Source of the DNA: a virus
Taxonomy: Duplodnaviria > Caudoviricetes
Strand: one strand, 5' to 3'
Length of the DNA stretch: 51,249 nt
IMG/VR virus record: IMGVR_UViG_3300033145_001039
Coordinates: 1-51,249 of that record
The translations under genes were made by a program, and so were the position numbers. Shown here piece by piece: positions 2,851 to 48,722 of the stretch (positions are counted from its first letter, which is position 1; each line of letters begins with the position of its first letter). The notes below the pieces were generated by a model. The model saw only the letters and a list, made by a program, of their open reading frames with translations. It searched no databases and was not told where the DNA came from.

Positions 2851-2866
2851 CCGACCGCCCCCTTAT

Positions 2867-4642
2867 TTACCGCTCTATTCCACGCGGCACCGTCGCTACC
2901 TCTGCCATTATATAGGCTCCCTCTTTAAGACCAGGCACCTGCACATAGGGATATTTGTCCGTTGAGACCACATTGTAGTCGCCACTAGGCTCCAAGATTA
3001 GATATGATTCTCCCGCCGATGGAGCATCATCCCATGCCTCCTCAACTATGATTTCTGTAGCTGTATTGGACAGGATCTTGCGGATTATGTTAGTCCCTTT
3101 GCGCCCGCTACCCTGGAGGGCCACATAGAATCCGCGCCATTGGTCTGTGCCCCACGATTTCGATGTATCTTGGAGAGTTGTGGCAGTTCCCCCTGTAGCC
3201 GTACCATAATCGGAAAGAGTTAGCTCCTTGTAACGAACCCGGTAACCCTTTGCCAGCCAATCCCGCGTACCGTGCCAATGAACATGTAGTACGGGAGCGG
3301 GACTTCCATCCTCATTCTCTCCCCATATCCCTATGGCCTCTATCTCTGTAGGAGGACTAGGGGTAACCCCGTGAAGGTCATCTCTGTCCCTATCGTGCTT
3401 TCCTATCCAATCCGTGCGTCCACGCACAAACCAGTATCGGGTAGCCCCCACACGCCGGCCAACTGCACCCCTGATTACTGTGCTCCCCATTACATCCTCT
3501 GGAGAGGCTATATTCCACTCTATCTCTGTGACACCAATATCGATGGTTTCGGATGGAGTCTCTATCCTTACCAGATCGCCGCCTTCTACCCCCAAAACCA
3601 GCCACGGGATAACTGCTTCAGCCCCAGGACATGGAGTAGACAGATCATGTAGCGCTGCATTGGCCTCTTTCTGTGCTTCGGCTCGCGTGTCGATCCATGA
3701 ACCATCCTTCTCTACGATCCTCATATAGCGGTGCAGTCGGCCGCCGCTGCCATCAGGAACGCCATAAATAGTCCTGGCTGTATCATCTTTTGAATCTGCA
3801 TGAGCCTGTTTGCCTGTAGTGCGGTCCGTATATAGCACCCTGACCCATGTCCGCACATTGGCCTCCGTGTAGGTCAATCTAGTAGTACGGATATTTCCGC
3901 CCAGGTCTATATCGGGAGTGGTATTGCTCCTCTGTGGGTCAACTACTGTGGGCCTAAACTCCCCAGCCGTAGCGTTGTATTTCTCCATCAATAGGTAACC
4001 TATGGAGTTAACTGGCCTCATAATCGCATCGCCTATACTGGTATCCCCGATAGCATAACGGTTCACGTAGTAATTGGGGTCATCTTGGACAACGATTACA
4101 GGAGCGAATCCGTAGTCCTCCAGGATTTGGTTGAGTACATTCACGGAAGCCGAAAGATAAGTCTCCTTGTATTCTCGTCCGTTTTCTTTGTCTATATAGT
4201 AATCAAAGTACGGCTGCATAGTACCGTAGAAGTCAACTGTGATGTAGTCCTCCATCTCAACATCTTCCCCGCTCGTAAGATCGCCTGGTCCAACAAAGCC
4301 CTGGAACACTAGCCCGGCCGCACCACCGCCTTTGCCGATCTTGATTCTGACATCATGATAGGCCCCCAAGAGGGGAACGCCACTAGGATTGAAGATGCTG
4401 GTATGACCAGGATCAAGAGACTCATTGGCCGCCCGAAAATCTTGCGTGTTGAAAATGATAGCCTGTGCCCGCCATCGCCCATCTACATAGCGAAACGACA
4501 ATGCTTTTATTCGGGACTTGCCCGGAAAAGAGCTCCCCGCCGGATTGGTAAGATCAATCCAACTGGAACCATTATATATCTCCACAGACTGGGAACTGAT
4601 TTTGGCCTGACTATTGGCATTCGCTATATCTGTTCTAGCCAT
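2867..4642 (-). CDS. Tail tip/baseplate hub-like protein with C-terminal FN3-like region
   Basis: Directly downstream of tape measure; hub-like E.GDLVRI motif; FN3-like PPTEI..LHVHW..YRVRY..VPGL. Confidence 0.7.
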   Translation of the reverse strand: MARTDIANANSQAKISSQSVEIYNGSSWIDLTNPAGSSFPGKSRIKALSFRYVDGRWRAQAIIFNTQDFRAANESLDPGHTSIFNPSGVPLLGAYHDVRIKIGKGGGAAGLVFQGFVGPGDLTSGEDVEMEDYITVDFYGTMQPYFDYYIDKENGREYKETYLSASVNVLNQILEDYGFAPVIVVQDDPNYYVNRYAIGDTSIGDAIMRPVNSIGYLLMEKYNATAGEFRPTVVDPQRSNTTPDIDLGGNIRTTRLTYTEANVRTWVRVLYTDRTTGKQAHADSKDDTARTIYGVPDGSGGRLHRYMRIVEKDGSWIDTRAEAQKEANAALHDLSTPCPGAEAVIPWLVLGVEGGDLVRIETPSETIDIGVTEIEWNIASPEDVMGSTVIRGAVGRRVGATRYWFVRGRTDWIGKHDRDRDDLHGVTPSPPTEIEAIGIWGENEDGSPAPVLHVHWHGTRDWLAKGYRVRYKELTLSDYGTATGGTATTLQDTSKSWGTDQWRGFYVALQGSGRKGTNIIRKILSNTATEIIVEEAWDDAPSAGESYLILEPSGDYNVVSTDKYPYVQVPGLKEGAYIMAEVATVPRGIER

Positions 4643-13505: not shown

Positions 13506-13522
13506 CGACCGCCCCCTCTAGC

Positions 13523-17365: not shown

Positions 17366-19524
17366 GCCCCACCTCCTTCACCCGCCATCTCAAGGAAATA
17401 GCGGACATATCTGTCTCCTTCGCGCCTGAAAAACGCGGCCAGCTCCTCTTGGTACTTGTGCCCTTCCCCTTGTTCAACGCCCAGAAGAAACACGTCGAAC
17501 TCTTTCCAGTACTCCTCGTCATTGATCTTTGCGCCCTCTATTACAGGCGCCTCGGTACAACGGCAATTTATGATGTTGGATGCAGACGCACCCAAACTAC
17601 CATCCCTGGGATGCATCATCTGCTCTATATCGCCATTCTCATTGGGCACCTCGAACGGTTGATCCATGGGGCGTTCTTGACGGTGAATCTGCATGTGCCA
17701 ATCCCTCACTCTCATATCCAACGTCGCTATCCACATGTGCCTTTGGATGCCTACATCGTTGTACAGCTTGTGTTGTCCAAAAGCCGTAGCAGCTCCTGCT
17801 TCAGTTCGTGCTATGCGCTCAGCCCGTACCGTAGACATCCAGTCGAACCGTCGCCGAATGCGGCTAGCTATTGCCTTTGGCCCTTCCCCTTCTCTCATTC
17901 CTTCCCGAATTACTCGTACAATGTCGCGCCGGGTGACCTCGTCAATGCCCTTGATTAGCTTGCCCATGCGCTGGTCTATCCAGTGCTGAATCGCATCAAT
18001 GAAGTTGAACCGCTCTTCCCAGTCAATCGGCACCGGATGGCCCAAATCACCAAGGGTATTGACCGCATGCTTGGCCCCCAGTAAAGCCAGAATAGGCAGG
18101 AACGATATGTGAACCCGCCGCTGGTCTTCCAAGCTCTCGCTTTCGGGAGGCAAGAATGCTTCGGGAACTCCTCCCGCGGGCTTGTCTTTTACAATGGATT
18201 TGTTGGCAAAAGATTTTTGAGGGGCAACCGTTCCCGCAGCCTGTACATTGATCGGGAGAATGACAGCATCTACAAGGTCCCCTTCAGCCCTAGGTTTGCC
18301 CCACCAATTGCGCAGCTCGTTCTTAGTCCAGCCTTGATCGGTAAGAAGCCGCCCAACCCTGGCCTTTTCTGTCACATCCTCCTGCAGGGCCTCGATCGCA
18401 GACACATCGAATACCAGCCGGACATTCTCTCCATCAGGGACTAGAGCATAGTTCAGCACAGATTCAATCTTCCCTAGACGGGGGAGAACTGTATTTTCAT
18501 AGAACAGCCGCCGCATGGTCTGTGCCGCTGCTCGGTTCACATCCTTGTAAAGCCCCACCACGATGGGCGGTACCCCGTATACAGCCAGGACCTCTTCTCT
18601 GGTCCAGCCACGCAACTCCAGGAAACCCATGTCCCTGTGAGAGGGAGATACGGGTTGATATTTGAGTCCTTTGCCGAGCACTGCCGTGCGGTGGGCCTTG
18701 CGCGGCCCCCGGTAGCGCTCCTCCCACAGCGCCCGCATAGCCCGAGATTGAGCCGGAGTAATATCTTGCTCGGTGCTCAAAACACCGCCGGGAGTAGCAT
18801 CGTTGTCGAAAAACATCCTATTCCAGTCAATCGCCCGCAGGTCGGCAATCAACGCCTGGCGCAGGACCTCAGTAGGGGCTAAGCCATAGTAAGGGTTCTC
18901 AGGATGGAAATATTTGAAGGCCACAATCTCATCACTAGCGAATACAATTGCATTAGCTCCGCGCCTATAAATATACCCTTGTACCAGTTTGTCTTCGCCG
19001 GGAATTACCCAGATATGTCGCGGGTCGATGTAAGGCCACAGCCCTCGAAGGGTTCTCTTGGCCTGGTCAGCAAAAATCTTCTCAGCATAAGCCACCCCCT
19101 CCAGCTCAAGATAGGTTACTATGGCCTCTAGAAACTCATGTCGCGTGATGTGGGCCTCGGGGAGCGGATTCTCCAGCACTGAAAGGAGAGGATGATTTTC
19201 AAGAACCTCGCCCCCCTCGGCCTTGACCCGCTCTAGTACATCCTCCCAGCGTTTGATCCCTAGAATAGACTTGTATGCGATTAGGGACTTCGGGATTCCG
19301 CCCTTAACACGTATTACCCGCAAGGGCACATCGGCAGCAGCTCGGGCAATGGCCTTTACTCCCGCATGAACCCACGGGTGGACGCGATACGCCTGAGAGA
19401 GGTCAGTCCACCTCCCACTATGGGAAGCCTCAGCCCCTGCATAATCGGCCCAAGCAGCCACAACACGGCTGCCTGTTTCGGCCTTGATCCCTAATCCCTT
19501 CTCTAGCGCCGCCAGTATTCCCAC
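17362..19524 (-). CDS. HK97-family portal protein fused to a C-terminal MuF/gp7-like minor head domain
   Basis: Portal motifs YYGLAP...FFDNDATPGGVL...YGVPP...TKNELR; MuF motifs RAERIARTE...RVRDWH...HP.D...NIINCRC; start refined to GTG 19524. Confidence 0.9.
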   Translation of the reverse strand: MGILAALEKGLGIKAETGSRVVAAWADYAGAEASHSGRWTDLSQAYRVHPWVHAGVKAIARAAADVPLRVIRVKGGIPKSLIAYKSILGIKRWEDVLERVKAEGGEVLENHPLLSVLENPLPEAHITRHEFLEAIVTYLELEGVAYAEKIFADQAKRTLRGLWPYIDPRHIWVIPGEDKLVQGYIYRRGANAIVFASDEIVAFKYFHPENPYYGLAPTEVLRQALIADLRAIDWNRMFFDNDATPGGVLSTEQDITPAQSRAMRALWEERYRGPRKAHRTAVLGKGLKYQPVSPSHRDMGFLELRGWTREEVLAVYGVPPIVVGLYKDVNRAAAQTMRRLFYENTVLPRLGKIESVLNYALVPDGENVRLVFDVSAIEALQEDVTEKARVGRLLTDQGWTKNELRNWWGKPRAEGDLVDAVILPINVQAAGTVAPQKSFANKSIVKDKPAGGVPEAFLPPESESLEDQRRVHISFLPILALLGAKHAVNTLGDLGHPVPIDWEERFNFIDAIQHWIDQRMGKLIKGIDEVTRRDIVRVIREGMREGEGPKAIASRIRRRFDWMSTVRAERIARTEAGAATAFGQHKLYNDVGIQRHMWIATLDMRVRDWHMQIHRQERPMDQPFEVPNENGDIEQMMHPRDGSLGASASNIINCRCTEAPVIEGAKINDEEYWKEFDVFLLGVEQGEGHKYQEELAAFFRREGDRYVRYFLEMAGEGGGA

Positions 19525-19534
19525 GACCGCCCCC

Positions 19535-19620
19535 AAAAATTAAGGCCCCCGCATAGCGAGGGCCGTGTGTCTCACGGGCTACCTTGTGCCTATTCTACCA
19601 CAATCTGCGTTACTAGTCAA
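19535..19620 (-). promoter_or_regulatory. sigma70 promoter (TTGACT-17-TGgTAGAAT) + conserved leader + terminator-like hairpin upstream of portal
   Basis: -35 at 19615-19620, -10 at 19592-19597; hairpin GGCCCTCGC-TAT-GCGGGGGCC then TTAATTTTT. Confidence 0.7.
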
Positions 19621-20285
19621 GCCAATTGTCTGTCTTCAAGACGAGAAATTATCTCGGCCATATAAAGAAGTGCCCTTCCATGTCCCTTGCGATCATTTCC
19701 AAAACCGCATAGATCAGCTATTCTTTCAATCTGGCTCATAATGGTTTCTTTCTCGACTTCATCTCTTACGACAAAACTTAAGGTAATGGCACTTGAAGCC
19801 GACCCTTCCTCGGCTTCCGCTGCGACCCGATCCCAGTCAAAGTCAATTAGGTCCCGGACATCATTAAGCTCCTCCATATTCCATGGCACGGTTTCCTCAA
19901 AGTCCTCTAGGCTTATCCCGCCGTCCAAGACAATCTGTAGGGCTTCGGCCTGTTTGATCGGATCTACCTCGAAGTACTCGACAACTTCGTGCGCAATGCG
20001 TATTGCCTCTTCTTGGGAGATTGGTCCATGATCGTAAGCCAGTACCTGTTTGATTCCCAGCTCTTTGAAAGCAATCAGACGATGGTTTCCATCGATCATT
20101 TCATAGCGTCCATCCTCTAATTGACGAACATTACAGTTTTTGATCTGCCCATTGCGGCGGATGTTCTCTGCCAGTTTTCTAGCCTTATCTTCGTCATCTT
20201 GCTTAAAGTTCCAGGGAGCTGGTACTATCTTGTCAATCGAGATCATCTTCAGTTGCGCCGGGAGCTTGGCTTTAGTACTAGACAT
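19617..20285 (-). CDS. ParB/Srx-like N-terminal domain protein
   Basis: IDKIVPAPWNF...LAENIRRNG...YEMIDGNHRL motif. Confidence 0.85.
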   Translation of the reverse strand: MSSTKAKLPAQLKMISIDKIVPAPWNFKQDDEDKARKLAENIRRNGQIKNCNVRQLEDGRYEMIDGNHRLIAFKELGIKQVLAYDHGPISQEEAIRIAHEVVEYFEVDPIKQAEALQIVLDGGISLEDFEETVPWNMEELNDVRDLIDFDWDRVAAEAEEGSASSAITLSFVVRDEVEKETIMSQIERIADLCGFGNDRKGHGRALLYMAEIISRLEDRQLA

Positions 20286-21072
20286 TCCAGTTCACCCCCC
20301 TCTTTTCCCAAAGTCTATTCAAGAACTCTTCCATCTTTAGTAGCTCGCGTACATTGTGGGCATTTCGTTCTAAGTACGCACTACGTTTGATAATACCAGG
20401 CCCGATTCTATTGATTGCTCTTTTGGGGTTTTTCCGTGGAAGAGCAGTCGATATCGTGCCATTCCGAAAACCAAGAACCATGCCAAATCTACCCCCAGCA
20501 TTCCACGTTGTAGCATCGCAGGAGTACGCGGGTACCCACTTAAGAACAGAACAAGAGGAGACTCCAAACAAGTGAATCCTGGTCCCGCGCTCAAAAGCAT
20601 ACTGAATAGGACGTGCGATCCGAGCCAAAAGCCCCTTCCAAGAGTTCTTTTGCTTGCCCACTATTCCACCAATAGCTACATAGTTAAAGTCTCTACAGTA
20701 GTCTTCAAATATTGACCAAGCCCAGCCAGGATGCCATACAGGGACGGGCTTCAGGCCAGCTTTTAGAAGACGATATAGATTAGCATTGGATTCATCAGGA
20801 GAATCAGTATCCAGATTTGCATATGCACTTAGATAAGGCCCTAGCTGGTGCAAGCAGTCTATATAGACCCCAATGTCTATCTGGGTCCCTGACACGCGGG
20901 CACTGTATCCTCCCGAATCCATGAAGATGTCCAATTGAGACGCATCGCGCATAATATTGGCTACTGTCTTGGAATCAGAATAGCAAAAGGAAAAAAGAAG
21001 CCGCGTAACGCCGCATGAACGCAGCAGCTTATAGAATTTACTCGACTCGCCACCCGCAAAGTACAATTTCAT
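20278..21072 (-). CDS. dpdA: TGT-fold transglycosylase, putative DpdA-like 7-deazaguanine DNA insertase
   Basis: MDSGGYS, YANLD, PVPVWH, YVAIGG, IHLFG, SCDATTW motifs; adjacent to the que genes. Confidence 0.75.
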   Translation of the reverse strand: MKLYFAGGESSKFYKLLRSCGVTRLLFSFCYSDSKTVANIMRDASQLDIFMDSGGYSARVSGTQIDIGVYIDCLHQLGPYLSAYANLDTDSPDESNANLYRLLKAGLKPVPVWHPGWAWSIFEDYCRDFNYVAIGGIVGKQKNSWKGLLARIARPIQYAFERGTRIHLFGVSSCSVLKWVPAYSCDATTWNAGGRFGMVLGFRNGTISTALPRKNPKRAINRIGPGIIKRSAYLERNAHNVRELLKMEEFLNRLWEKRGVNWNV

Positions 21073-21992
21073 TGATCACCGTTTCGCGCCACAAATGCAG
21101 CATTGATTCCGCTCTTGTTAAGAGCATTTATAATGTCCTTGGCTGCCACTATAGATATTTCTTCATGGGCTAGCGCATAGCCCCTACAATGGACACGTAC
21201 AGCCTCTCTTATCTTTTTATTAATCAGAGGGTCATTAAGATTCGGCGGGGGAGATAGCCACTTTTCATCCTGGGCAATGCCATTGTTTACAAAGGCAACC
21301 CACCGCCTAAAGCATGCCTGACATGCTCCACAATGGATGCTTTTCCCTTCCTGACACGATAGCGTGTCCAATATGTTTGCTTCGTTGACATTTTTCAGCC
21401 ACCATCTGACTATATCGGTCTTGCTCCATCCCGAAAAAGGAAAGTATACGCGCACAGGATAGGGCCTAGTCCCCAGCACAGCATTCAAAGCTCCCCAGAA
21501 CTGCCAGCTCTTATCACCACCACGGGGCTTGATCTCTCCCTCGGTAGCGGATAGCCAGATCTCCCCACCCTTATCAAGGAGCTCGGAAGCAGCCATTATG
21601 AAAAGCAAGTTACGGCCAGGAATCATATAGCCGTAACGCTCGCGATTATGAGTGAAATCTGAAAAATCCAAGATCAATGGGTCGATCCCCAGCTTTTCAA
21701 GCGCCCTCAATTCAAGATCCTCATAACCGGTCCGAATCTTGCAATATACTGGTATTGCCTCACCCCGGGCTCGTCTCTTCGCCATGAAGTAGGCTGCCGA
21801 GCTATCTAGCCCCCCAGACACAAGAACCACAATATCATGCGCCGGCTGGCCAACTAAAAACTCTACTTCCTGCACCATGTGGGGATGATAGAAAGCTTCT
21901 TGAAGAAGGGTGCCCCAGATTCCAGGAGGCAAAGTTACGGGCTTCCCTTCGGCCACATCCCTCATTAGCTTTAAGATATCTTTAGCGGTCAT
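21069..21992 (-). CDS. queC: 7-cyano-7-deazaguanine synthase
   Basis: SGGLDS PP-loop, IPGRNLLF, K.DIV, SC...HCGACQACFRR. Confidence 0.88.
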   Translation of the reverse strand: MTAKDILKLMRDVAEGKPVTLPPGIWGTLLQEAFYHPHMVQEVEFLVGQPAHDIVVLVSGGLDSSAAYFMAKRRARGEAIPVYCKIRTGYEDLELRALEKLGIDPLILDFSDFTHNRERYGYMIPGRNLLFIMAASELLDKGGEIWLSATEGEIKPRGGDKSWQFWGALNAVLGTRPYPVRVYFPFSGWSKTDIVRWWLKNVNEANILDTLSCQEGKSIHCGACQACFRRWVAFVNNGIAQDEKWLSPPPNLNDPLINKKIREAVRVHCRGYALAHEEISIVAAKDIINALNKSGINAAFVARNGDQ

Positions 21993-30365: not shown

Positions 30366-30408
30366 ACCGACCGCCCCCTCTGGTCACATTCTACACAATC
30401 TGGGCCAA

Positions 30409-31953
30409 TCAGACAAACAACTGTACCCGTTGCCAAATTGGCCTTTCGTCCCGAACCACCTCAGAATACGTAAATGCATGGGCATAGTGATCCGGCCCGC
30501 TCTCTACCCAAGATGCGTACTCCTTTCCACCGCCCCGTACGATCTGCCTAGTTAGCACCCGGAAATGTCTGATCACCTCCTCTGGCAGATCCTCGGGCAC
30601 TGATTCTTCCTTGTTCAGTATGCGGGCAAAAGCACGGTCCATCGCCTCTGTCCTAGGGACCGTGATAATCGTTACCCCATCCTCCTGTGTCTGTTTCCCC
30701 CCAATCGCCGTCGGGCTGGTATGGTAGCGTATAAGCACGACGCGCCCGGGGAACCTCCTGGCAAACTCTTTTGCCTTAGTTGTCTCTGGCATCGCATCAA
30801 TGCCGCACATCTGAACGTTGTACGCCTGCATTTTTCTTTCCAGCTCATGCCAGTCACACGTTCCTGTCCATACCGTGCCCCCCTCTATGCGTCGTATCCA
30901 CACATGAAGCACAGCCCCCACATCAACCCCCATAACCGTTGGCCGATCGGAGCTAAGGGCCATCTGGCCACCCCTCGGCAAAGCTCTGAATGCTTGCTCA
31001 TCTATCCGTGCCCCTTCTTGGGCATACGGCAGGCCAAGGTGAAAGTTAAAGAATACCTGTAGCTTAGTGGCGTCTCCCTTGGCCTCTTTCCAAAGCTCCA
31101 TCAACTCCCAAGGTCGCACCGTGGGAGATATGAGCTGCGACATTCTAAATGACCGATAGGGGGCATCCGGATTAAGTGCCCGCCACTTGCCCGAATACTT
31201 ATCAATGGGGCATCCACACTCGGGACAGACAATACTTTCCGGTTTCCCGGGGTCAATACTATCCGGCCAACGCGGTTCGGCTCTTGTCCCACACTTCGGG
31301 CATTCAATCTCCCAAACTTCCTGCGTGCCCTCTAGGTAGGCCAGATGAATCCCGGACTCGGGAAACTGTGGGTTCGAAAGGTCAACTTTGTACTTGTACC
31401 GGCTAGCGCCCAAACGAGATTCTGCTTGCTCGCGCCCCTCGGGGTCCATGGCCCCAAACTCATCTCGCACCAAGGCACCGACCGGAATCTCAAGCAGTTT
31501 TTGCTTTGAGTTAGCACCGCGCAGATACAGAGACTGCCCAAACCCAATCTTGAGCCCTACGTTATCTGTGTCCGTAAATGCGTGCTTGAGGTAGGGAGAC
31601 AGTTTGATCGCTTTGTTTACCCGAGCTTGGGCAAAATCTGAAAGCTGGCGATCCGTGGGGAGCATGTACAGCACGCCCTCTTGCCGTCTGTCCATAAACC
31701 AGAATGTGAAGTTTAAGGCTGCTTCGGTCCAACCACTCTGAGCACACTTCATCACTACAATGCGCCCACCAGGTAAGAGTGCGCCCATGGCCTCATATAT
31801 CGCCATAAGATACGGTTGGCGGAACGGCTCATCTGCAATGCTGTATGCCCCGCCATCCGGCATTCGCCGATGTGCTACAGCCCACCAGAGAGGGGTAGTC
31901 CCTTCCAGGGCTCGTATGCGTTGAGCTACAGCAACCGGACTAATCACCGGCAT
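30409..31953 (-). CDS. terL: Terminase large subunit, lambda gpA-like
   Basis: VVMKCAQSGWTE, YMLPT, RDE Walker B, LSNP, CPKCG/CPECG, MGVDVG nuclease, DHYAHA. Confidence 0.9.
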   Translation of the reverse strand: MPVISPVAVAQRIRALEGTTPLWWAVAHRRMPDGGAYSIADEPFRQPYLMAIYEAMGALLPGGRIVVMKCAQSGWTEAALNFTFWFMDRRQEGVLYMLPTDRQLSDFAQARVNKAIKLSPYLKHAFTDTDNVGLKIGFGQSLYLRGANSKQKLLEIPVGALVRDEFGAMDPEGREQAESRLGASRYKYKVDLSNPQFPESGIHLAYLEGTQEVWEIECPKCGTRAEPRWPDSIDPGKPESIVCPECGCPIDKYSGKWRALNPDAPYRSFRMSQLISPTVRPWELMELWKEAKGDATKLQVFFNFHLGLPYAQEGARIDEQAFRALPRGGQMALSSDRPTVMGVDVGAVLHVWIRRIEGGTVWTGTCDWHELERKMQAYNVQMCGIDAMPETTKAKEFARRFPGRVVLIRYHTSPTAIGGKQTQEDGVTIITVPRTEAMDRAFARILNKEESVPEDLPEEVIRHFRVLTRQIVRGGGKEYASWVESGPDHYAHAFTYSEVVRDERPIWQRVQLFV

Positions 31954-32539
31954 TATCTTCCCCCTTAGCCATCATCGTTGCCCTGCGCCACACCCGTTGG
32001 AGTACCTCTGCTTCCTCATCTGTGACCTCTATTGGCCGCTCTGTCATCTCTATTCGCTCTGTAGGCTCCCCCATCAGTAATTGCTCGATCCGTATCAATT
32101 CTCCCGCCGTGCGCACAATCTGGGGCAGCAACCTCGCACGCGTAGCAGCTGGCAACTGTGCCCATGCTCTGCGTATCTCCTGAATCGTCTCCTGGGGATC
32201 ATTGGCCGTAGGGACTAGGCCCCGACCCACTTCCCGCGCTAGCCCTACCAAGTAATCTCTCAGCCACTTGATCATCTTGGCAGTCCGCTCTCTTTCAGAT
32301 TCATTGCCTCGAACGGCCCGGGCCGCGCTCTGCCTAGCACTTTGTTTGAGATTATCCACAACCGTAGTTCTCCAGTATGATTCTCTCTGTGCCCTCCATT
32401 GCTCTTGTGCGGAATATTTTTCGACTGTGCGGATAGCCACACCATACTTTGCGGCAAGTGCCCGCAGTGATGGCCGCTCCGGTGAGGTCACGTACTCAAC
32501 CCGGATCGCTTCTTTAAGGGCTTCTTCTAGTTTTTTCAT
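31940..32539 (-). CDS. terS: Terminase small subunit
   Basis: N-terminal HTH (SLRALAAKYGV...EQW), helical, GEPTERIE; overlaps the terL start. Confidence 0.75.
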   Translation of the reverse strand: MKKLEEALKEAIRVEYVTSPERPSLRALAAKYGVAIRTVEKYSAQEQWRAQRESYWRTTVVDNLKQSARQSAARAVRGNESERERTAKMIKWLRDYLVGLAREVGRGLVPTANDPQETIQEIRRAWAQLPAATRARLLPQIVRTAGELIRIEQLLMGEPTERIEMTERPIEVTDEEAEVLQRVWRRATMMAKGEDNAGD

Positions 32540-32545
32540 CGTGTT

Positions 32546-32776
32546 CTATTCTAGCCCTCCATCTGCATGTGGGCCAAACATGATGCGGATACCGAACATC
32601 TCCCACAGTATCTTTCGGTAATGTCGAGAAGGGACTTCCTTGCCTCGTTCCCACTTGCCCCATCTATTACAAGACGCACCAAGTGCAAGAGACATCTCTG
32701 TTTGAGTGGCTCCACGCTCTTTGCGCACATCTTTTAATATCGCCGGCAAGTCCGACCGCCTCATAATTGGATACAT
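32546..32776 (-). CDS. XRE-family HTH protein
   Basis: LKDVRKERGATQTEMS..LG...WGKWERG...P. Confidence 0.8.
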   Translation of the reverse strand: MYPIMRRSDLPAILKDVRKERGATQTEMSLALGASCNRWGKWERGKEVPSRHYRKILWEMFGIRIMFGPHADGGLE

Positions 32777-36610: not shown

Positions 36611-37491
36611 GATAAAGTCACCCCCATTTTTTGAACTATCACTTCTCGTAGCCCCTCAGCCAACTTTCGTATTTCCCATTGAGCACTTGGAGATGTCCTT
36701 AGTTCAATAAAATGTTTCCACATCTCCAAGCTCATGCTCGCCACAAGGTTAGTCTTAGCCCCCAAGGGATAAATGAACCGGGCATCTTCTTTAGGCACTC
36801 CAGCTTCTATTAACCTGGTATATGCTTTTTCCGCATAAGCCACCGCAGCGAAGAATGTGCCCGTATGATGTGAATTATTTATACTAGGAGGAACTTTGAC
36901 CCCATTCTTTGTGGCATAGCAGTACCGTTGTGATTCTTGCATATAGCTAGCGATCCTGTGACGCACTATCTGATTAGCCGCAATCCGGGAAATCCGCCGG
37001 AAGTGTACTGTAACATAACTGTGGCGTGGCAGAAATCTAGCGGGCACAGGGGGCTTGTAAGCATCCATGAGATATACATTGCCGTCTACCACAGGAGCTG
37101 GCTCGGGATTTCCTTCTAGTAAAGCTTTCCATGGCCCGGGGAGTAAGGACACCATATCGCCTACTAAGTCACTACGCCGTTGTAGTAACTCATATATGGT
37201 CCTTGCATTCAAAGTGAGATAGACAGCACCACGATCCAATGATGCAGCCCATCCGTGACTATCTGCCATTATCTCCACCACTTCTTCTCGAACTTGCCGG
37301 AACCCGTTAGGGCTAACATAGAAGGTGGCTCTGGCAAACTCTAGAGATGAAAGGTGTCCAAGCTCAATTAGTTTGCTCACTAGCCGGGCGTTATTCTGGG
37401 GAGATGAAACCGCAAACGAATTATGGGAAACTCTAGCACAAGCAGCTATTAACCCCACCGGGTTCTCCGTGCAATCGATCAGCTCAAACAT
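36607..37491 (-). CDS. thyX: Flavin-dependent thymidylate synthase
   Basis: GHLSSLE, QIVRHRIASYMQESQRY, EDARFIYP, AQWEIR; start refined to ATG 37491. Confidence 0.92.
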   Translation of the reverse strand: MFELIDCTENPVGLIAACARVSHNSFAVSSPQNNARLVSKLIELGHLSSLEFARATFYVSPNGFRQVREEVVEIMADSHGWAASLDRGAVYLTLNARTIYELLQRRSDLVGDMVSLLPGPWKALLEGNPEPAPVVDGNVYLMDAYKPPVPARFLPRHSYVTVHFRRISRIAANQIVRHRIASYMQESQRYCYATKNGVKVPPSINNSHHTGTFFAAVAYAEKAYTRLIEAGVPKEDARFIYPLGAKTNLVASMSLEMWKHFIELRTSPSAQWEIRKLAEGLREVIVQKMGVTLS

Positions 37492-37506
37492 GCCGTCCCC
37501 CTTTGG

Positions 37507-37569
37507 GTGGTGGGGCGGTCGAAAAAGGAGGTGATAGGCAGAATCGCCATGAACCGACCGCCCCATCAC
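37507..37569. promoter_or_regulatory. Inverted repeat of the GGGGCGGTCG motif enclosing a perfect SD/anti-SD sequence, in the thyX leader
   Basis: TGGGGCGGTCG(37511-37521) AAAAAGGAGGTGAT...CGACCGCCCCA(37555-37565). Confidence 0.6.
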
Positions 37570-37577
37570 GCATAATT

Positions 37578-37865
37578 TTATTCCTCTTTGGACTCTAAGT
37601 CAAGCACACAAATCCTGCCGATCTTCTGCATGATTCTGCGCCTGAACGATTTGTCCCAAAGTCGCGCGATCCACAACTTTGAGTCTCCGTACTCCATGAG
37701 GAGATCTATCTGGCCGCCTAAACTTACTCGCGGCCACGATTGCATTATGCTATTGGGGATGCCATCTGGTTCTATGCCCTTCCAACGACATACTTCCTCT
37801 GCAACGCCAATCGCAAGTTGTTTCGCAAGTGCTTCTGTGCAATGCAGCGTGATTTCAGAGTACAT
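37578..37865 (-). CDS. Hypothetical protein
   Basis: RBS AAGGAGG; MYSEITL... Confidence 0.6.
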   Translation of the reverse strand: MYSEITLHCTEALAKQLAIGVAEEVCRWKGIEPDGIPNSIMQSWPRVSLGGQIDLLMEYGDSKLWIARLWDKSFRRRIMQKIGRICVLDLESKEE

Positions 37866-38958: not shown

Positions 38959-39578
38959 CGACCGCCCCTTTCATTGAGCTTTGTTTGCCAATTTACTGCC
39001 CGTATTTCCCCGACCTCCTTTATGCTCCAGTTTGGCCCCGTGATAGGGATAATCCTCGCATCCGGGGCCAAGAACCGCCGCATAATCCGGGGATCGTACC
39101 TGCGCTGGAACTCATCGTCCTCACCTCCTACCACTAAGTTAGTTGTCACGATTAGGGGTTTCTGATCTCTCCACCTGCGGTCCACCAATACCTCAATCGC
39201 CTCTAGTGCGTACTCAGATGGCTTCTCTACTCCCAAGTCATCTATTACAACCATGGTAGCATCTATGGCCCGCTTAAGTGGATCTTCTCCTCCATGCTGG
39301 ATTGCCCACCTGCGTGCTAAGGCAAGCTCGGCCATAGGCCAATAGACATACCGCCCATGTGGCCATTTAGCATCAAGCTCGTTCAGTAAAGCCGTAACTA
39401 GTCTAGTCTTACCCCGTCCCGTCTTGCCCCACAGAAGGAGAGACCATGATTCACCCGCCACTATCTTTTGACAATATTCAAGGGCTTCGGCAATTCCGTC
39501 GTGTACTTCTATGGCCTCGAAACCACCGTGAAACCGCCGCCCTAGGGGTGCCCCCAAGATCACGTCCCCCTCCCGCAA
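38955..39578 (-). CDS. DnaC/IstB-like AAA+ helicase loader
   Basis: GKTGRGKT Walker A, VVIDDLG Walker B, IVTTNL. Confidence 0.9.
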   Translation of the reverse strand: MREGDVILGAPLGRRFHGGFEAIEVHDGIAEALEYCQKIVAGESWSLLLWGKTGRGKTRLVTALLNELDAKWPHGRYVYWPMAELALARRWAIQHGGEDPLKRAIDATMVVIDDLGVEKPSEYALEAIEVLVDRRWRDQKPLIVTTNLVVGGEDDEFQRRYDPRIMRRFLAPDARIIPITGPNWSIKEVGEIRAVNWQTKLNERGGR

Positions 39579-40435: not shown

Positions 40436-40731
40436 GCCGACCGCCCCCTGTTTTGTTTTCCCGCACCATCCCCTTTCCAGCGCCAGACGCCAATAGGTCT
40501 ATGGTGACACTCCCTTCTCTTGCTCTTCTTATACCCTACGCACTCCCAGCCCGGTTCTTTGAAGACCGCTCCCAATGCCCGCAGGTCTACTGTAACAGGA
40601 AGAACCCCCAGACGTTCCCGTACATCATCAATTGTGACCGTGCCTTGTTCCCGAGCAATCTCCTTGGCTATGATGCGGCCAGCGTTGATGAGCCCCGCCC
40701 GGTCTTGTTCGAATAGGCCCATTACATGCAC
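40426..40731 (-). CDS. Hypothetical phage protein (wHTH-like)
   Basis: GTVTIDDVRE...ALGAVFK...GYKKS.R..CH.RPI.VW. Confidence 0.65.
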   Translation of the reverse strand: MHVMGLFEQDRAGLINAGRIIAKEIAREQGTVTIDDVRERLGVLPVTVDLRALGAVFKEPGWECVGYKKSKRRECHHRPIGVWRWKGDGAGKQNRGRSAWM

Positions 40732-42247: not shown

Positions 42248-43002
42248 TCCACACCTCCTGCGATAAGCTCCTCGGTGTGAGGCTTACCCTTTTCGGTTTT
42301 CCTTGTTTGCGCGGATTTGGGCTCAAACAATGCCCGCAGCGCCTTGTAGCTCATTGGACACGATCCGGCCTTGTCCAGGATCGGATTCCGGCTCCCAGCC
42401 TCGATGCCCTCATAAGGCCGGAATACGATCTTGCGCTCACCCTTTTCCGTGGTGCAGAACAGGACGTTATCCACTACGGCGAGGGCGAACCTGGCCAAGC
42501 GCCCCGGCAGGTCTATCGTGTGGCCTACCGTGACTTCGCCGATCACTGCCCACCTGGAATGCGCAATGACAAGTACATTGACAGGCAGTTGAGAGAATGC
42601 CTTGATGAGTTCGATTACCCGATTCCGGGCCGCCCCCCAGTCTGCGCCGTAAGGAGCTTGCCCAAGTTGGGTAATACCCATCTCTTCGCAGACCTCACGC
42701 TCGATCCAGTCATTCACCACGTCTATGGTGTCAAGTGCGATCGTCTGATAGGGCAGTTCCCCCTTGTCAACCATGGCCCTTAGCTGCGCGTATACCTCGC
42801 GCAACTCGCCCAGGTTTTTGATCTCAGCCACGTAAGCGCCCTCTACGTAACGGGTGCCGCCTTCCATATCCAAGATCAGGCACTCAGGCCATTGGGCTGC
42901 GAAGGAGCTTTTGCCGATTTTCGGTGCGCCGAATACGAGCCAAGTGCCCCTCTCGGGAAAGCCAGTATCGGCCTTCTTCTTCTCCTTTGGCAGCACTACC
43001 AT
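42244..43002 (-). CDS. AAA_24/Sak4-like recombination ATPase
   Basis: GAPKIGKS Walker A, LDMEGG, IALDTID, VIAHS. Confidence 0.85.
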   Translation of the reverse strand: MVVLPKEKKKADTGFPERGTWLVFGAPKIGKSSFAAQWPECLILDMEGGTRYVEGAYVAEIKNLGELREVYAQLRAMVDKGELPYQTIALDTIDVVNDWIEREVCEEMGITQLGQAPYGADWGAARNRVIELIKAFSQLPVNVLVIAHSRWAVIGEVTVGHTIDLPGRLARFALAVVDNVLFCTTEKGERKIVFRPYEGIEAGSRNPILDKAGSCPMSYKALRALFEPKSAQTRKTEKGKPHTEELIAGGVE

Positions 43003-43922
43003 GTCACCACCTCCTGCAATTCGCTGTGCTTTCGGGTCTGTCTAAATCCCATCTTCCGGGCTAACTTTGAATCATTGATGCAAAGCTCCCGGTATACACA
43101 CCCGTGATAGCGGCATGCGTCGGGGTTTCTCCATGTCGCTCCCTTTCCTATGGCTCTCGCAATTTCAATCAGTTCTTTGCCGATCTGATCGAGGTCATCA
43201 CCAGACTTTGCTATCGCCTCTTTTTGGTAGTACCACTCGGGCCGAGGCTGGGTGCCATTGAAGGGAGCCGTCAGCCCAACTTCAACGGACAACCGCTTAA
43301 AGTAGGCATCAGAATCCTCATTCTTTCTGATACGGATCTGTGGCTTGCGGATGAGGTAATAGATGATCCCGATGGGTTTGAGCCCCAGTTGCCATTGTGC
43401 CCACATGTAGTAGGCCATCTGGTCATCTATCTGGAGCCTGTCTGTGTCTAGCTCTCGGGAACCGGTCTTCCAATCCCACAGCCAAGCATTGCCATGCGGA
43501 TCTTTTGTAATGAGGTCGATCTTCCCGGCCAGGGAAAACTTAGGAGACTTGCGGCCAGTAGCAGTCTTGAGGGGCACGATAAACTCTTTCTCGACTGCTA
43601 CCACCTCGTGCTCCATAGCCCGGACTGGATCGCGGGCCAGGAGCCCTCCAACGAGCACTTCGGCTATGCCCATGTTGTGCTCAGCCTCATCGTCTCCCCA
43701 TGGCGAAGTATTGGAAGTCAGGTGCTCCCGCATGGCTTCGAACGGGTCTTGCCCCCCGTAGTGGGCTCCCAGCCCTACATGAACCAAGGAGCCGAAATAG
43801 GGGGCGGGCTTGGGTTTCAGCGGTTCAAGCCCTTCGTGGTACTTGAACCACCACTTACGCGGGCACGCTTTCCACGTGCCGATTTCCGAACTAGTCAGAA
43901 CTATGCGCTCCGACCGCCCCAT
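42996..43922 (-). CDS. PD-(D/E)XK nuclease, Cas4/RecB-like exonuclease
   Basis: CPRKWW...FGSLVH...VEKEF...GKIDL...DWKT...Q..YY...C...C..RELC; start refined to ATG 43922 (RBS AAGGAGG). Confidence 0.88.
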   Translation of the reverse strand: MGRSERIVLTSSEIGTWKACPRKWWFKYHEGLEPLKPKPAPYFGSLVHVGLGAHYGGQDPFEAMREHLTSNTSPWGDDEAEHNMGIAEVLVGGLLARDPVRAMEHEVVAVEKEFIVPLKTATGRKSPKFSLAGKIDLITKDPHGNAWLWDWKTGSRELDTDRLQIDDQMAYYMWAQWQLGLKPIGIIYYLIRKPQIRIRKNEDSDAYFKRLSVEVGLTAPFNGTQPRPEWYYQKEAIAKSGDDLDQIGKELIEIARAIGKGATWRNPDACRYHGCVYRELCINDSKLARKMGFRQTRKHSELQEVVTW

Positions 43923-43936: not shown

Positions 43937-44224
43937 TTATAATGGGGGGCCGCTTTCCGACCGCCCCAAAGTCTGAAACGCGGCTGGCCGCCCCGACCCC
44001 TTGGGGCGGCCACTTCTCTTTAGAGCAAGCTTGCCGCCCACGATGTCTATGCACCATGACCAAGGCGATTGACCATAGCACTTATCCAAGAGGATTTCGT
44101 GGGAGGGATACAGTTTTAGAAGACGAACTTGCACAATCCATGGCCCATCATCGAATAGCACGAGGGCCTTGCCGTGCTCTATCTGGGTAAGAGTCCCAAT
44201 GCGGGTACCATAGCGTACTAGCAC
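43937..44224 (-). CDS. Small protein with SH3/KOW-like beta pattern at the N-terminus
   Basis: GTG after GGGGGCGGTCGGA; VRYGTRIGTLTQIEHGKALVLFDDGPWIVQV. Confidence 0.45.
   Translation of the reverse strand: MLVRYGTRIGTLTQIEHGKALVLFDDGPWIVQVRLLKLYPSHEILLDKCYGQSPWSWCIDIVGGKLALKRSGRPKGSGRPAAFQTLGRSESGPPL
43949..44021 (+). ncRNA. Predicted ~70-nt sRNA carrying CCGACCGCCCC, the complement of the genome-wide start-site motif
   Basis: Extended -10 TGtTATAAT at 43935-43943 on +; seed at 43957-43967; hairpin TGGCCGCCCC-N8-GGGGCGGCCA then CTTCTCTTT. Confidence 0.55.
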
Positions 44225-44237
44225 TCCGACCGCCCCC

Positions 44238-44348
44238 TTGCCTGGATTCTCTGTTCGTGCTACAATACTTCTGGGAGTCATGCGAGGCTCCTTTCGAGGG
44301 GGGCACATTAGACTAGCGGCTCTGTGCCCCTCTCAGTTTTTTTGTTTA
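44238..44348 (+). ncRNA. Predicted OOP-like antisense sRNA unit (promoter + ~70-nt transcript + intrinsic terminator)
   Basis: TTGCCT(44238)-17-TACAAT(44261) with TG extension; GAGGGGGGCACA...TGTGCCCCTCTC then AGTTTTTTTGTTT. Confidence 0.6.
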
Positions 44349-44542
44349 TCTGCGATCTTTATTCCCAACACGCGCTCTAGGCGCATCCTAAACAGCCGCA
44401 ATGGCTTGGTATGTCCCTTTTCCCAGTTATAGATGGTCATGGGAGAACAGCCAAGCTTCGCGGCCAGTTCATCGCGACTCATTCCGAGCCGCTCCCTAGC
44501 AGCTCTGATCTGCATCCCCACCTCCTTTCTCTCTGTCATCAT
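44333..44542 (-). CDS. Cro-like XRE HTH regulator (leaderless)
   Basis: IRAARERLGMSRDELAAKLGCSPMTIYNWEKG..KP. Confidence 0.9.
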   Translation of the reverse strand: MMTERKEVGMQIRAARERLGMSRDELAAKLGCSPMTIYNWEKGHTKPLRLFRMRLERVLGIKIADKQKN

Positions 44543-45143: not shown

Positions 45144-46325
45144 GTGACTATTCCCCGCAGATAAAGCAAGGGGCTTCTAGGGCCTTGCAGCCCAGGCTCT
45201 GTAGTCCCAGAGCCAATATGTTTAATGCCGCATTATGGTCACGATCCAAACGAAGACCACAATGAGGACATTCATGAATACGAACTGAGAGATCCTTGGG
45301 AACGATAGCTCCGCACTGGGAGCATCTCTGGGTAGTCCCGCGTGGATCAACTTCGATTACACGACGACCAGCCTCTTCCGCTTTGTACATCGTGAACTGC
45401 CGAAGCTGTCGCCACGCAGCATCACCGATGCTCTTGTTCAAGCTGTGCCAGTTCCCATTTTGCATCTTTTGAATCTCCAGTTTTTCAAAAGCCAGCAATT
45501 GAAATTCATTTACCAGACGACGGCTTAGCTTGTGAGCAAAGTCGCGGCGCTTGTTTGTAATGCGCTCATGGATGCGGGCCACTACCTTGCGCCGCTTCTT
45601 GTATTCAGGGGTTCCTTTTTTAGCTTGGCTGAACTTGCGTTGGGCTTTAGCCAATGCCTTCTCTTCCCGGCGGAAGAACCGTGGATTCTCAATCTGCTCG
45701 CCTGTCGAAAGAGTGGCAAAGCTCTCCAAGCCAACATCTATCCCAACCGCGTTAGGAACAGGGGGCAATCTTTTCGGTTTGACTTCTACTGAGAAGCAAG
45801 CGAACCACTTGCCGGTAGCAGTGCGCCGAATAGTCAGGGTCTTGATTTGTCCTTCGATGGGCCGGTGAAGCCTGATTTTAATGTCCCCGATCTTAGAAAG
45901 ACGCAGCTTTCCCTCCTCAGTGAGTTTGAATCCCGACTGGGGATAGGTGAAGCTATCATATCGCCCCTTTCCTTTGAAACGGGGATAACCGGCTTTCCCG
46001 TTCTTGGCTTTAAGCCTGCGAAAGAATCCTTGAAAGGCCAAGTCAACACGAGTACAAACCTCTTGAAGCACCTGAGAATAGACATCATTGAGCTGGGGAT
46101 ATTCCTCTTTAAGTTGTGGTAACATCTTAATAGTATCATAGCGTGCAAGGGATTCCCGCCGCTCAGACCAGGCTTCGCGCCTTCTAGCTAATATTTCATT
46201 ATAGACAAACCGACAGGAGTCCAAAGTCTGCTCCAGTCGAGCACGCTGGCCTTTCGTAGGAAATAACCGATATTTAAATGTTCTCCTCACAGTTATATTA
46301 TATGACATTTATGCGGCGGCGTCAA
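45144..46325 (-). mobile_element. tnpB-only (IS1341-like) element without tnpA
   Basis: Right-end-like GAAGCCCCTTGC-TTTATCT-GCGGGGAATAGTCAC ending TCAC at 45144; left side TTGACG-17-TATAAT; left boundary uncertain. Confidence 0.7.
45148..46290 (-). CDS. tnpB: RNA-guided endonuclease TnpB (IS200/IS605 family)
   Basis: FKYRLFPT, GYPRFK, GIDVG (RuvC-I), AFEKL (RuvC-II), CSQC/CPHC, DRDHNAALNI (RuvC-III); probable leaderless GTG at 46290. Confidence 0.95.
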   Translation of the reverse strand: MRRTFKYRLFPTKGQRARLEQTLDSCRFVYNEILARRREAWSERRESLARYDTIKMLPQLKEEYPQLNDVYSQVLQEVCTRVDLAFQGFFRRLKAKNGKAGYPRFKGKGRYDSFTYPQSGFKLTEEGKLRLSKIGDIKIRLHRPIEGQIKTLTIRRTATGKWFACFSVEVKPKRLPPVPNAVGIDVGLESFATLSTGEQIENPRFFRREEKALAKAQRKFSQAKKGTPEYKKRRKVVARIHERITNKRRDFAHKLSRRLVNEFQLLAFEKLEIQKMQNGNWHSLNKSIGDAAWRQLRQFTMYKAEEAGRRVIEVDPRGTTQRCSQCGAIVPKDLSVRIHECPHCGLRLDRDHNAALNILALGLQSLGCKALEAPCFICGE

Positions 46326-46345
46326 GTACACAAAGAAGGACATGA

Positions 46346-46588
46346 TCACTTTTCGACATCCCGCGTAGTACCCCCTAGAGCAGTTTGAATCAACAAAAGA
46401 TTGCTTTTGATCGCGGCCTCAATCTCCTCCCGGGCCGCATCCCGAATCCCCTCATATAGCTGGGCTTTCACCGCCGTCAATAAATCTTCACCCTGCTCAT
46501 CCAGATAATCACGAAATGCCCGAATGACTAGTTCTGTGACAATGCGGCCAAGCTCCTCGTAAAGATCATCAAGGGTATCATCGTCCAT
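46346..46588 (-). CDS. Acidic hypothetical protein
   Basis: RBS GAGGAG; MDDDTLDD... Confidence 0.6.
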   Translation of the reverse strand: MDDDTLDDLYEELGRIVTELVIRAFRDYLDEQGEDLLTAVKAQLYEGIRDAAREEIEAAIKSNLLLIQTALGGTTRDVEK

Positions 46589-47684: not shown

Positions 47685-47692
47685 GCCACCTC

Positions 47693-47956: not shown

Positions 47957-48036
47957 CCGCCGACCGCCCCTTCTCTGCCCACCCCTGCCCCGCCGGGTAC
48001 CCGACCGCCCCACCAGACCCGGCATCCCATCTTGCG

Positions 48037-48285
48037 CTACTGGCCGCCCGTTGCCCCCTCATCCGGTACCAGCCCCGATACGAATTCAGCTAACTTCCTG
48101 AGAGCCAACACGAAGTTTTTTTGCCACTCTATGGGCATCTGTAGCATTGCCGAAACAATGTACGGTTTGATCCGATCCGCTAGCTCTTCCGGGTCAATTG
48201 AAGTGAGAAGCTGGGCCACGAGCTGAGGTGCCCATCTCTTGACAATCGCTACTAACAGTTTTTGCCACCAAGACATGCCTACCAC
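48037..48285 (-). CDS. Small amphipathic hypothetical protein
   Basis: Coupled ORF in the putative lysis/envelope cluster. Confidence 0.6.
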   Translation of the reverse strand: MVGMSWWQKLLVAIVKRWAPQLVAQLLTSIDPEELADRIKPYIVSAMLQMPIEWQKNFVLALRKLAEFVSGLVPDEGATGGQ

Positions 48286-48722
48286 CTCAGTTCAAATCTT
48301 AGAATGGTGTCGATATACCACCATCCCGCTCCATATATCAGACCCCAGGATACAGACCCGTTGAAGATCCTGAATCTGACACCGGCCAGGCCATACCATG
48401 GCGAGAAATACATGGCCGGATTAGTAATGTAGACTCCCACGCCCAGCCCTAAAGTGGGCTGCACGGCCACTTGGGAACTGATATTGATAGCAGGGAAGTA
48501 GCCCTGAGCATCCACAAGCCACGCCCCATCAAGCCCGAAATCCGCTGGGAAAACCTTGCTCGCCTGCACCCCAAAGTAGATGTCATCCCACCCAAAGGAG
48601 TAGCAGGGATACGCGGCCGGCACGCCCGGGTCTACAAACTGCCGAAAACCGATGAACGGTCCGGCAAATGCGACCGCCCCGAATAGTGCCGCCAGAATGA
48701 CCGCCCCAAATGCCTTTCTCAT
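48279..48722 (-). CDS. Exported beta-strand-rich protein, possible outer-membrane beta-barrel
   Basis: Signal peptide MRKAFGAVILAALFGAVAFA; alternating aromatic strands; C-terminal LRFELRW. Confidence 0.6.
   Translation of the reverse strand: MRKAFGAVILAALFGAVAFAGPFIGFRQFVDPGVPAAYPCYSFGWDDIYFGVQASKVFPADFGLDGAWLVDAQGYFPAINISSQVAVQPTLGLGVGVYITNPAMYFSPWYGLAGVRFRIFNGSVSWGLIYGAGWWYIDTILRFELRW

Follow-up and report, generated by a model that had tools for sequence, protein, structure and literature searches.

A strand-polarised, lineage-specific 10-mer associated with translation starts in an uncultivated phage

Results

A repeated word in a phage genome

The IMG/VR virus record IMGVR_UViG_3300033145_001039 (Duplodnaviria; Caudoviricetes) is complete, with direct terminal repeats, and was analysed over its whole length of 51,249 bp (hereafter the window). 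It represents an uncultivated phage of siphovirus type. Nearly all of its genes lie on the - strand. A 10-mer recurs along this genome, often at or close to translation starts: CGACCGCCCC matches the + strand exactly at 16 places and the - strand once, at 37512, and all 17 coordinates that a sequence-only reading of the DNA had listed were exact matches. Because the genes are almost wholly on the - strand, the gene-sense form is GGGGCGGTCG, referred to here as the word. Its copies and the gene map are collected in Table 1.

Table 1. Copies of the word in the window, followed by other features. RBS, ribosome-binding site; ORF, open reading frame; HTH, helix-turn-helix; G001, the relative described in the text.
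Feature	Position	Strand	Context
RBS-position copy	2852-2861	-	ATG 2850 1 nt downstream, tail-fibre-like protein (537 aa); in the 16-nt gap behind the stop of the upstream gene
RBS-position copy	13506-13515	-	Head-tail adaptor gene; GTG 13505 at 0 nt or ATG 13502 at 3 nt
RBS-position copy	19524-19533	-	Portal gene; last G of the word is the G of GTG 19524
Internal copy	22552-22561	-	FolE codons 5-8; GTG 22573 has its own GAGGAGG; que module, absent from G001
QueD copy (ambiguous)	23546-23555	-	Begins 1 nt after ATG 23559, ends 4 nt before in-frame GTG 23541; que module, absent from G001
Earlier QueD ATG	23565	-	Behind GAGAGGAGG
RBS-position copy	28788-28797	-	Last G of the word is the G of GTG 28788, RNA-ligase-like protein (316 aa)
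RBS-position copy	30368-30377	-	10 nt after the -10 of promoter-like site 30416-30388; 2 nt before TTG 30365
ORF from TTG 30365	30365	-	65 aa; stop overlaps ATG 30175 of the next gene
Leader copy	37555-37564	-	10 nt after the -10 of promoter-like site 37603-37575; 63 nt before likely thyX ATG 37491
Inverted copy, the only one	37512-37521	+	Complement of the word in - strand RNA; 3' arm of the thyX-leader stem
RBS-position copy	38959-38968	-	HNH endonuclease ATG 38958 directly after; within the last codons of the DnaC-like gene (ATGA overlap)
RBS-position copy	40438-40447	-	ATG 40435 2 nt downstream, DnaD-like replication initiator; mosaic junction
ATG-overlap copy	43911-43920	-	First G of the word is the G of ATG 43922 (Cas4-like exonuclease), which has its own strong AAGGAGGAG
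Distal copy	43958-43967	-	Ends 35 nt before ATG 43922; 3' end of ORF 43937-44281, just after 12-bp hairpin 43985-44012
Ambiguous copy	44227-44236	-	2 nt before in-frame GTG 44224; also codons 16-19 of the ORF from ATG 44281 behind AAAGGAG
RBS-position copy	47961-47970	-	ATG 47956 4 nt downstream, 87-aa protein with N-terminal hydrophobic helix; 80-nt G-rich gap
Second copy in the same 80-nt gap	48002-48011	-	Ends 45 nt before ATG 47956
Internal copy	48671-48680	-	Codons 15-18 of an exported or membrane protein (ATG 48722 behind AAAAAGGAGG)
One-mismatch variant, last base A	48698-48707	-	Codons 9-12 of the exported or membrane protein gene (ATG 48722)
One-mismatch variant, second base A	32753-32762	-	Early codons of a 76-aa XRE-type HTH gene (ATG 32776)
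Promoter-like site, then terminator-like hairpin, then portal copy	19620-19592, 19564-19544, 19524	-	
Small early genes and Cro-type HTH gene	44333-44542 (HTH)		Right end of the map
Recombination set	42996-43922 (Cas4-like exonuclease)		Cas4-like exonuclease, Sak4-like protein, SSB
Replication genes			DnaD-like and DnaC-like loaders, HNH endonuclease, ThyX
GpA-type large terminase	30409-31953		RNA-ligase-like protein next in right-to-left order
Short block on the opposite strand	23.8-27.5 kb		
7-deazaguanine cassette	19617-23565		ParB_N protein, DpdA-like, QueC, FolE, QueE, QueD
Structural genes			Portal, protease, capsid, adaptor, tape measure, fibre-like

Enrichment and discreteness

The 16 gene-sense copies and the single inverted copy compare with an expectation of 0.14 (mean of 100 dinucleotide-preserving shuffles, with a maximum of 2). 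Under Markov models of order 0-3, the gene strand should hold 0.08-0.12 copies. The count against a Markov background thus gave strong enrichment at every order, and the earlier estimate of well under one copy by chance was borne out. The word is the most frequent 10-mer on the gene strand (16 copies against 1 inverted) and the most over-represented in the genome. Allowing up to one mismatch gave 22 sites, where 3.6 were expected. Only five of these are one-mismatch variants, two of them start-proximal, so the word class is discrete and not a fuzzy consensus.

The shuffles, Markov models and mismatch counts rule out chance or base composition as the origin of the word. Protein-coding constraint is likewise ruled out, as the copies within coding sequence occupy all three reading frames; the constraint therefore acts on nucleotides. 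Around the word, a G follows directly in 11 of the 16 sense copies and an A stands at position -2 in 10, and the remaining context is unconserved. No Rfam family matched at gathering score. A candidate second word family, GGCGGCCA, was ruled out.

Placement at gene starts

An ORF of at least 60 codons starts -1 to +4 nt after the word at 10 of the 16 sense copies, compared with 8.8% of all positions. Under a stricter definition of a start, the figures were 7 of 16 and 2.4% (binomial P = 4e-8). Where the earlier reading had counted ten copies at starts, eight proved clear, and two (44227 and 23546) are ambiguous. The QueD copy at 23546 can be taken either as an internal copy or as the RBS of a shorter form. 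Three copies that had been placed in early codons, those of FolE, the Cas4-like gene and the exported protein, were correctly assigned, with QueD as a fourth case. The copies at 37555, 43958 and 48002 are leader copies rather than start copies.

Among 61 gene starts, 39 have a GGAG or GAGG core, 8 carry the word in the place of the RBS and 14 have neither. The eight word-fronted genes have no other GGAG or GAGG within 24 nt, in agreement with the earlier proposal of two RBS classes; they start with ATG (five), GTG (two) or TTG (one). Half of the 14 starts without either element use a GGGG or GGGGG core (for example GGGGGTGA), which indicates that wobble Shine–Dalgarno (SD) sequences are generally used in this phage. 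Three copies (38959, 40438 and 28788) lie in overlapping gene junctions. The structural arm holds 3 of the 17 copies (P = 0.06 for depletion).

Pairing with the 16S rRNA

Pairing of the word was evaluated with ViennaRNA against a generic consensus 16S 3' tail. The predicted energy was -11.0 kcal/mol, between those of GGAGG alone (-8.7) and AAGGAGGTGA (-16.1). The predicted duplex joins GGGG to CCUC and GGUC to GAUC; it includes two G.U pairs and is interrupted by a single C-A mismatch. Compared with 360 permutations of the word's own letters, this pairing falls in the top 4.4%, and compared with 5,000 genomic 10-mers, in the top 1.2%. With GGGG aligned to the GAGG core, the start codon is 5-10 nt away; in canonical genes the distance is mostly 4-9 nt.

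This pairing does not account for the invariance of the word. Replacing C by T or G at position 5 would improve it to -14.9 or -13.8 kcal/mol, and position 10 is nearly irrelevant to it, yet both positions are fixed in all 17 copies. Changes of G to A at positions 2 and 7 would also pair slightly better, and neither occurs in any copy. Canonical sites in the same genome vary freely, whereas the word class does not. The sequence-only reading had offered a wobble variant of the canonical SD, with two G.U pairs and one mismatch, as one explanation; the pairing was found as described, but it is not sufficient for the invariance or for the six to eight copies outside the RBS position.

Invariance and restriction to one lineage

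Queries of IMG/VR with the large terminase (TerL), the Cas4-like exonuclease and the portal protein each found one relative only, a 50,326-bp genome (G001). It is a mosaic, 85-97% identical in shared blocks, and aligns with the window in 15 blocks. G001 carries 14 sense copies and 1 inverted copy, and all 15 window copies that lie in shared DNA are kept. A base-by-base comparison of the 14 sense copies found none of the 140 motif bases changed, whereas 84 of 1,680 bases differ in the flanks, a rate at which 7 changes would be expected in the motif (P about 8e-4).

Beyond this pair of genomes the word was not found as a polarised family. It is lacking in the loci of 80 TerL relatives (at most 64% identity), most of which hold 0 or 0-1 copies. 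A scan of 2.9 million viral contigs in IMG/VR for tandem pairs of the word gave 89 loci, with no polarised carrier besides G001 (L016). The other loci were rejected as carriers of a shared motif; they comprise Gly-Ala-Val coding repeats in high-GC phages, unrelated tandem arrays and an integrase/Mob_Pre family of about 45 members. No window ORF matched more than two of the 89 loci. Scanning for the word, a loop and its complement returned eight ordinary hairpins, one of them in G001, and five other counted records hold 2-6 copies without strand bias. Partial relatives of the phage occur in DNA runs (X1-X12) from several metagenome studies of marine sediments and hydrothermal vents; Logan contigs of four DNA runs gave 2,484 differences from the window. 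The word is a real, strongly non-random and lineage-specific start-associated word.

If the ribosome were its sole reader, the word would be a plain SD variant, and its exactness would stem from recent spread or gene conversion in a young lineage. The pairing, the spacing and the GGGG-type cores of other genes all fit this explanation. A young origin would also be expected to leave the TerL relatives without the word, and conservation could be judged against one close relative only. However, complementarity and spacing are those of an ordinary SD in eight to ten copies, whereas the degeneracy typical of canonical SDs is absent: the class comprises 17 exact copies with only two start-proximal near-variants, and the motif is unchanged where its flanks differ by 5%. 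Copies 35-63 nt upstream of a start, in early codons or in inverted orientation would moreover have no SD role. We know of no mechanism that copies a 10-mer to 17 sites. On balance, we hold a plain SD variant to be distinctly improbable.

A more distal SD-like role would be of the kind seen in Bacillus, where STAB-SD, an mRNA-stabilising SD-like sequence of the ordinary GGAGG type, lies far upstream of a start near the 5' end of a transcript. Such a likeness would give a role to the copies at 30368, 37555, 43958 and 48002, but the word is an invariant 10-mer used throughout the phage and not of the GGAGG type.

The word and genome mosaicism

The two sense copies missing from G001 are those in the que module, which is replaced there by another cassette (27992-32742; L100 7992-12742) encoding a ParB_N protein, a terminase-small-like protein, a glutamine amidotransferase, an acetyltransferase and others. 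The window counterpart of the swapped segment is 19587-23580, and the ParB_N proteins of the two phages are unrelated beyond the domain. A likely DNA-modification module has been swapped between these near-identical phages. G001 keeps 15 copies without the DpdA/QueCDE/FolE module, so the word is not tied to the deazaguanine system. A role of the word as a target of DNA modification is unlikely for the same reason, as G001 retains its copies next to a different cassette.

The word might instead serve as a recombination linker, that is, as microhomology for module exchange by the Sak4/Cas4-like exonuclease system. At 40438, homology with both G001 and a contig of run X1, from sediment, breaks off just beyond ATG 40435, and each end of the que module lies within 60 nt of a copy. 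However, only one breakpoint of the window/G001 alignment falls within 10 nt of a copy, which is not significant given that about 0.9% of the genome is within this distance. A linker would also not be expected to show strict polarity, spacing in the SD range or copies in early codons, and 10 bases are short for annealing proteins. We consider this explanation extremely unlikely.

Copies at promoters and in leaders

Two copies, at 37555 and 30368, cover the positions where transcription would be expected to start, each exactly 10 nt beyond the -10 hexamer of a promoter-like site, and at several genes paired copies are 27-47 bp apart. This arrangement recalls the stoperators of Cluster A mycobacteriophages. 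These are copies of an asymmetric word that occurs at more than 20 sites along the genome, both in promoters and in short gaps between genes, and whose orientation follows the direction of transcription (PMC9283540). The word shares their asymmetry, dispersal and polarity (16:1, with two copies over predicted transcription starts and others in short gaps). A phage repressor would then bind the double-stranded word and block both the initiation and the elongation of transcription in an orientation-dependent manner, as in Cluster A. The exactness of the copies fits recognition by a protein, and the phage encodes three HTH proteins (69, 76 and 149 aa).

Several differences argue against this. Stoperators are 13-mers bound by a monomeric repressor with HTH and Stoperator domains in temperate phages (PMC9283540). 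They are not defined by SD-like pairing or by a fixed distance to a start codon. Here, neither an integrase nor a two-domain repressor (about 180 aa) was found among the 70 window proteins scanned with PHROGs or in Pfam scans, although many small ORFs are unannotated. PDB searches matched the two small HTH proteins to ordinary Cro/434-type domains and gave no match for the MerR-like protein; the three HTH proteins are unlike repressors of the stoperator kind. A DNA operator would need neither the spacing of -1 to +4 nt to a start, seen at ten copies, nor an anti-SD pairing in the top 4.4%. Finally, near-consensus promoters at 44698, 44577 and 40926 have no copy. A stoperator-like site is therefore unlikely in our judgement, though not negligible.

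Transcription could also be affected at a later step, if the word in the non-template strand paused the polymerase and recruited a NusG-family or other elongation factor. The ops element, through which RfaH acts, is a 12-nt site that occurs once per operon leader, and RfaH-controlled genes are said to lack good SDs. The word shares GGCGGT and the non-template location with ops, and where the structural operon begins, one copy follows a promoter-like site and a terminator-like hairpin. It differs in having C in place of A (one of eight core bases) and in its 16 sense copies, which stand next to individual genes, whereas ops is limited to one site in each operon leader. No NusG-like or KOW protein was found among the phage proteins scanned, although the host could supply such a factor, and the invariant 5' GGGG would be unexplained. 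The ops-like site suggested by the sequence-only reading thus found no support, and we regard this explanation as very unlikely.

The head of the structural operon (19544-19620, - strand) has a layout of its own. A promoter-like TTGACT-17-TAGAAT with a TG is followed by a 9-bp GC-rich hairpin with a T tract, the word and the portal GTG. The innermost C-G pair of the hairpin is T-A in G001, a compensatory change. This layout suggests that the late genes may be controlled by antitermination.

The thyX leader

The thyX leader (37491-37603, - strand) consists of a promoter-like site, the word, a loop of 31-33 nt, the inverted word, AAAGGGGGA and ATG 37491. It contains the only complement of the word on the sense strand of the genome, and the two copies (37555 and 37512) form the arms of a predicted 12-bp stem. 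ATG 37491 is the likely start of thyX, with the best SD pairing; the peptide that it opens appears to resemble a ThyX N-terminus.

Within the loop, 12 consecutive nucleotides are identical to the generic 16S 3' tail, a match that occurs nowhere else on the sense strand; the 7-nt anti-SD core is found on that strand only twice. In the + orientation these nucleotides make up a perfect extended SD, and an ATG 10 nt further on opens an ORF of only eight codons. In the - strand transcript, they could mask the SD of thyX or have an effect in trans. One could imagine that the word marks a phage-encoded translational regulon with its own RNA reader, in which the thyX leader, as a decoy or antisense RNA, would switch ribosomes between canonical-SD and motif-fronted genes during infection. 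We regard this as a long shot.

A proposed start-associated sequence with a possible second reader

Short, dispersed words at translation starts were described in 2011 as start-associated sequences (SAS). The three published reports that we found all concern actinobacteriophages, and the function is still given as unknown (PMC3203893, PMC7302621). The SAS of Cluster K mycobacteriophages is a 13-bp sequence present in 11-19 copies, in one orientation with a single reversed site in several phages, and typically 3-7 bp before start codons (PMC3203893). It pairs in part with the 16S rRNA, has conserved positions outside the pairing and is far better conserved than an RBS (PMC3203893). In Cluster EF Microbacterium phages, which look lytic and have no integrase or repressor as described, ten copies of the 13-bp GGGAAAGGACCCC occupy RBS positions and are unusually well conserved (PMC7302621).

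The word agrees with the Cluster K SAS, as there described, in being a short asymmetric sequence in one orientation with a single reversed copy, lineage-specific, in part able to pair with the 16S rRNA although some conserved positions have no role in pairing, and much less variable than the ordinary RBSs of its genome (PMC3203893). There is no sequence homology between the two, and the differences are considerable. The Cluster K sequence is the 13-bp GGGATAGGAGCCC with a canonical AGGAG core, whereas here a word of 10-11 nt has a wobble GGGG core (PMC3203893). In the account given there, Cluster K sites are confined to the non-structural arm, mostly in gaps of more than 50 bp and with ATG preferred (PMC3203893); the window has three structural copies, copies in overlapping junctions and a mixture of start codons, and six to eight of its copies lie in leaders or early codons. 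About half of the Cluster K sites have an upstream inverted-repeat extended SAS (ESAS) (PMC3203893), and each Cluster EF site is linked to a weakly conserved one (PMC7302621). No ESAS-like element accompanies the word, and the Cluster EF word is a different one.

The word is, then, a new word of a known kind, the function of which is given as unknown in the reports cited above. We put at about even chances that it is an SAS like those of Cluster K and EF phages, acting as an RBS and additionally read by a second factor. In the mRNA, GGGG and GGUC would pair with CCUC and GAUC of the 16S 3' tail in vivo. This would place the start codon 5-10 nt after GGGG, so that the word could serve as the RBS of at least eight genes. 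Positions without a role in pairing are invariant, and other copies are located in 5' leaders and early codons. On these grounds we propose that the complete word is probably recognised by a second factor as well, which could be a protein or an RNA and could come from the phage or the host. Pope et al. argued likewise for the SAS, from conserved positions without a pairing role (PMC3203893). Such a factor could bring some 14 genes, belonging to the early, replication, packaging and structural modules, under joint control.

A number of observations weigh against an SAS with a second reader. Six to eight of the 16 sense copies lie outside the RBS position: those in FolE, in the exported protein, over the ATG of the Cas4-like gene, in the thyX leader and two distal ones, with QueD and 44227 ambiguous. 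Within the thyX leader, the word is locked in the predicted 12-bp stem and would be inaccessible to ribosomes there. The 16S tail used is a generic consensus and may differ from that of the host. The pairing is weaker than that of a canonical extended SD (-11.0 compared with -16.1 to -18.4 kcal/mol), and for a thermophilic host its drop to -2.2 kcal/mol at 75 C would be relevant. Conservation was assessed against one relative about 5% diverged, and most of the flank changes fall at two loci. Within 80 nt upstream of the copies, no shared k-mer or positional signal other than the A at -2 was found that could represent an ESAS; shared 7-mers there are as frequent as in random sets. No candidate reader emerged from the scans of the phage proteins, and no RNA runs containing the phage were found.

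Two small proteins encoded next to word copies were considered as autoregulated readers and rejected. The 87-aa protein behind the double site at 47956 has a hydrophobic N-terminal helix. The 114-aa protein (ORF 43937-44281) has an uninformative predicted structure, with a predicted local distance difference test (pLDDT) score of 41, and its Atlas matches are below lead level.

If the word is read as an SAS, the phenomenon now extends to an unrelated uncultivated siphovirus-type phage with relatives in marine-sediment and vent metagenomes. The Cluster EF case, as described, indicates that each lineage can have its own word (PMC7302621). Together, these cases suggest that start words which are hyper-conserved and specific to one lineage form a strategy that recurs among phages and is no peculiarity of those of actinobacteria. 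This word differs from the known SAS in that its core pairs with the 16S rRNA only through wobble pairs. At its positions 5 and 10, pairing with the ribosome can be told apart from recognition by another factor, which makes it a cleaner test case. If a dedicated reader exists, it would give the phage a means of joint translational control over early, replication and structural genes.

Other features of the genome and of the loci examined

The ORF of 114 codons at 43937-44281 (- strand) contains two copies of the word and the 12-bp hairpin within its coding sequence. The basic tail of its product has two GRP repeats, which are presumably AT-hook-like. In the 80-nt gap at 47957-48036 (- strand), six runs of GGG or GGGG accompany the palindrome CGGGTACCCG, and G-quadruplex formation could occur there. 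An 82-aa gene has its ATG at 48276. G-rich words are strand-asymmetric throughout the window (GGGCGG, 55 sense and 5 antisense), and the GC skew on the + strand ranges from -0.05 to -0.21.

No integrase, sigma factor or NusG-like protein occurs among the 70 window proteins searched with PHROGs or in Pfam scans. The only match to 'integration' is a TnpB-type transposase (45144-46352; PF12323, PF01385, PF07282; 386 aa) with its own near-consensus promoter. This segment is missing from G001, and a contig of run X6 bridges across it; the gene is a recent insertion-sequence acquisition of the phage genome.

The closest genomic TerL match (60%) lies on a 66%-GC contig (L182) in a metagenome-assembled genome titled Thermotoga sp., and the contig shares only TerL with the window. 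The assembly holds 11 exact copies of the word in 1.7 Mb. With one mismatch allowed, the counts were 333/230 for the word and 338/264 for the reversed control, and hence not enriched. The contig itself carries 8-9 same-strand copies of TCCGTGGTCCGT.

In about 45 of the tandem-pair loci (L013-L098; for example L039 11223-11269), two exact copies of the word stand 37 nt apart in conserved non-coding DNA between a tyrosine integrase and a Mob_Pre relaxase. These loci belong to lower-GC integrative mobilizable elements unrelated to the phage, and the non-coding region may be an oriT or have a regulatory role. Another record, the unrelated 107-kb high-GC phage IMGVR_UViG_3300036791_000462 (L156), has a leader word of its own, GACCGAGGAG, at 13 sites across 21 kb. 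These lie 3-10 nt before start codons, 11 in forward and 2 in reverse orientation, and are mostly preceded by a short hairpin and a -10-like TATGAT, an arrangement that by its layout appears to be an SAS/ESAS-like cassette.

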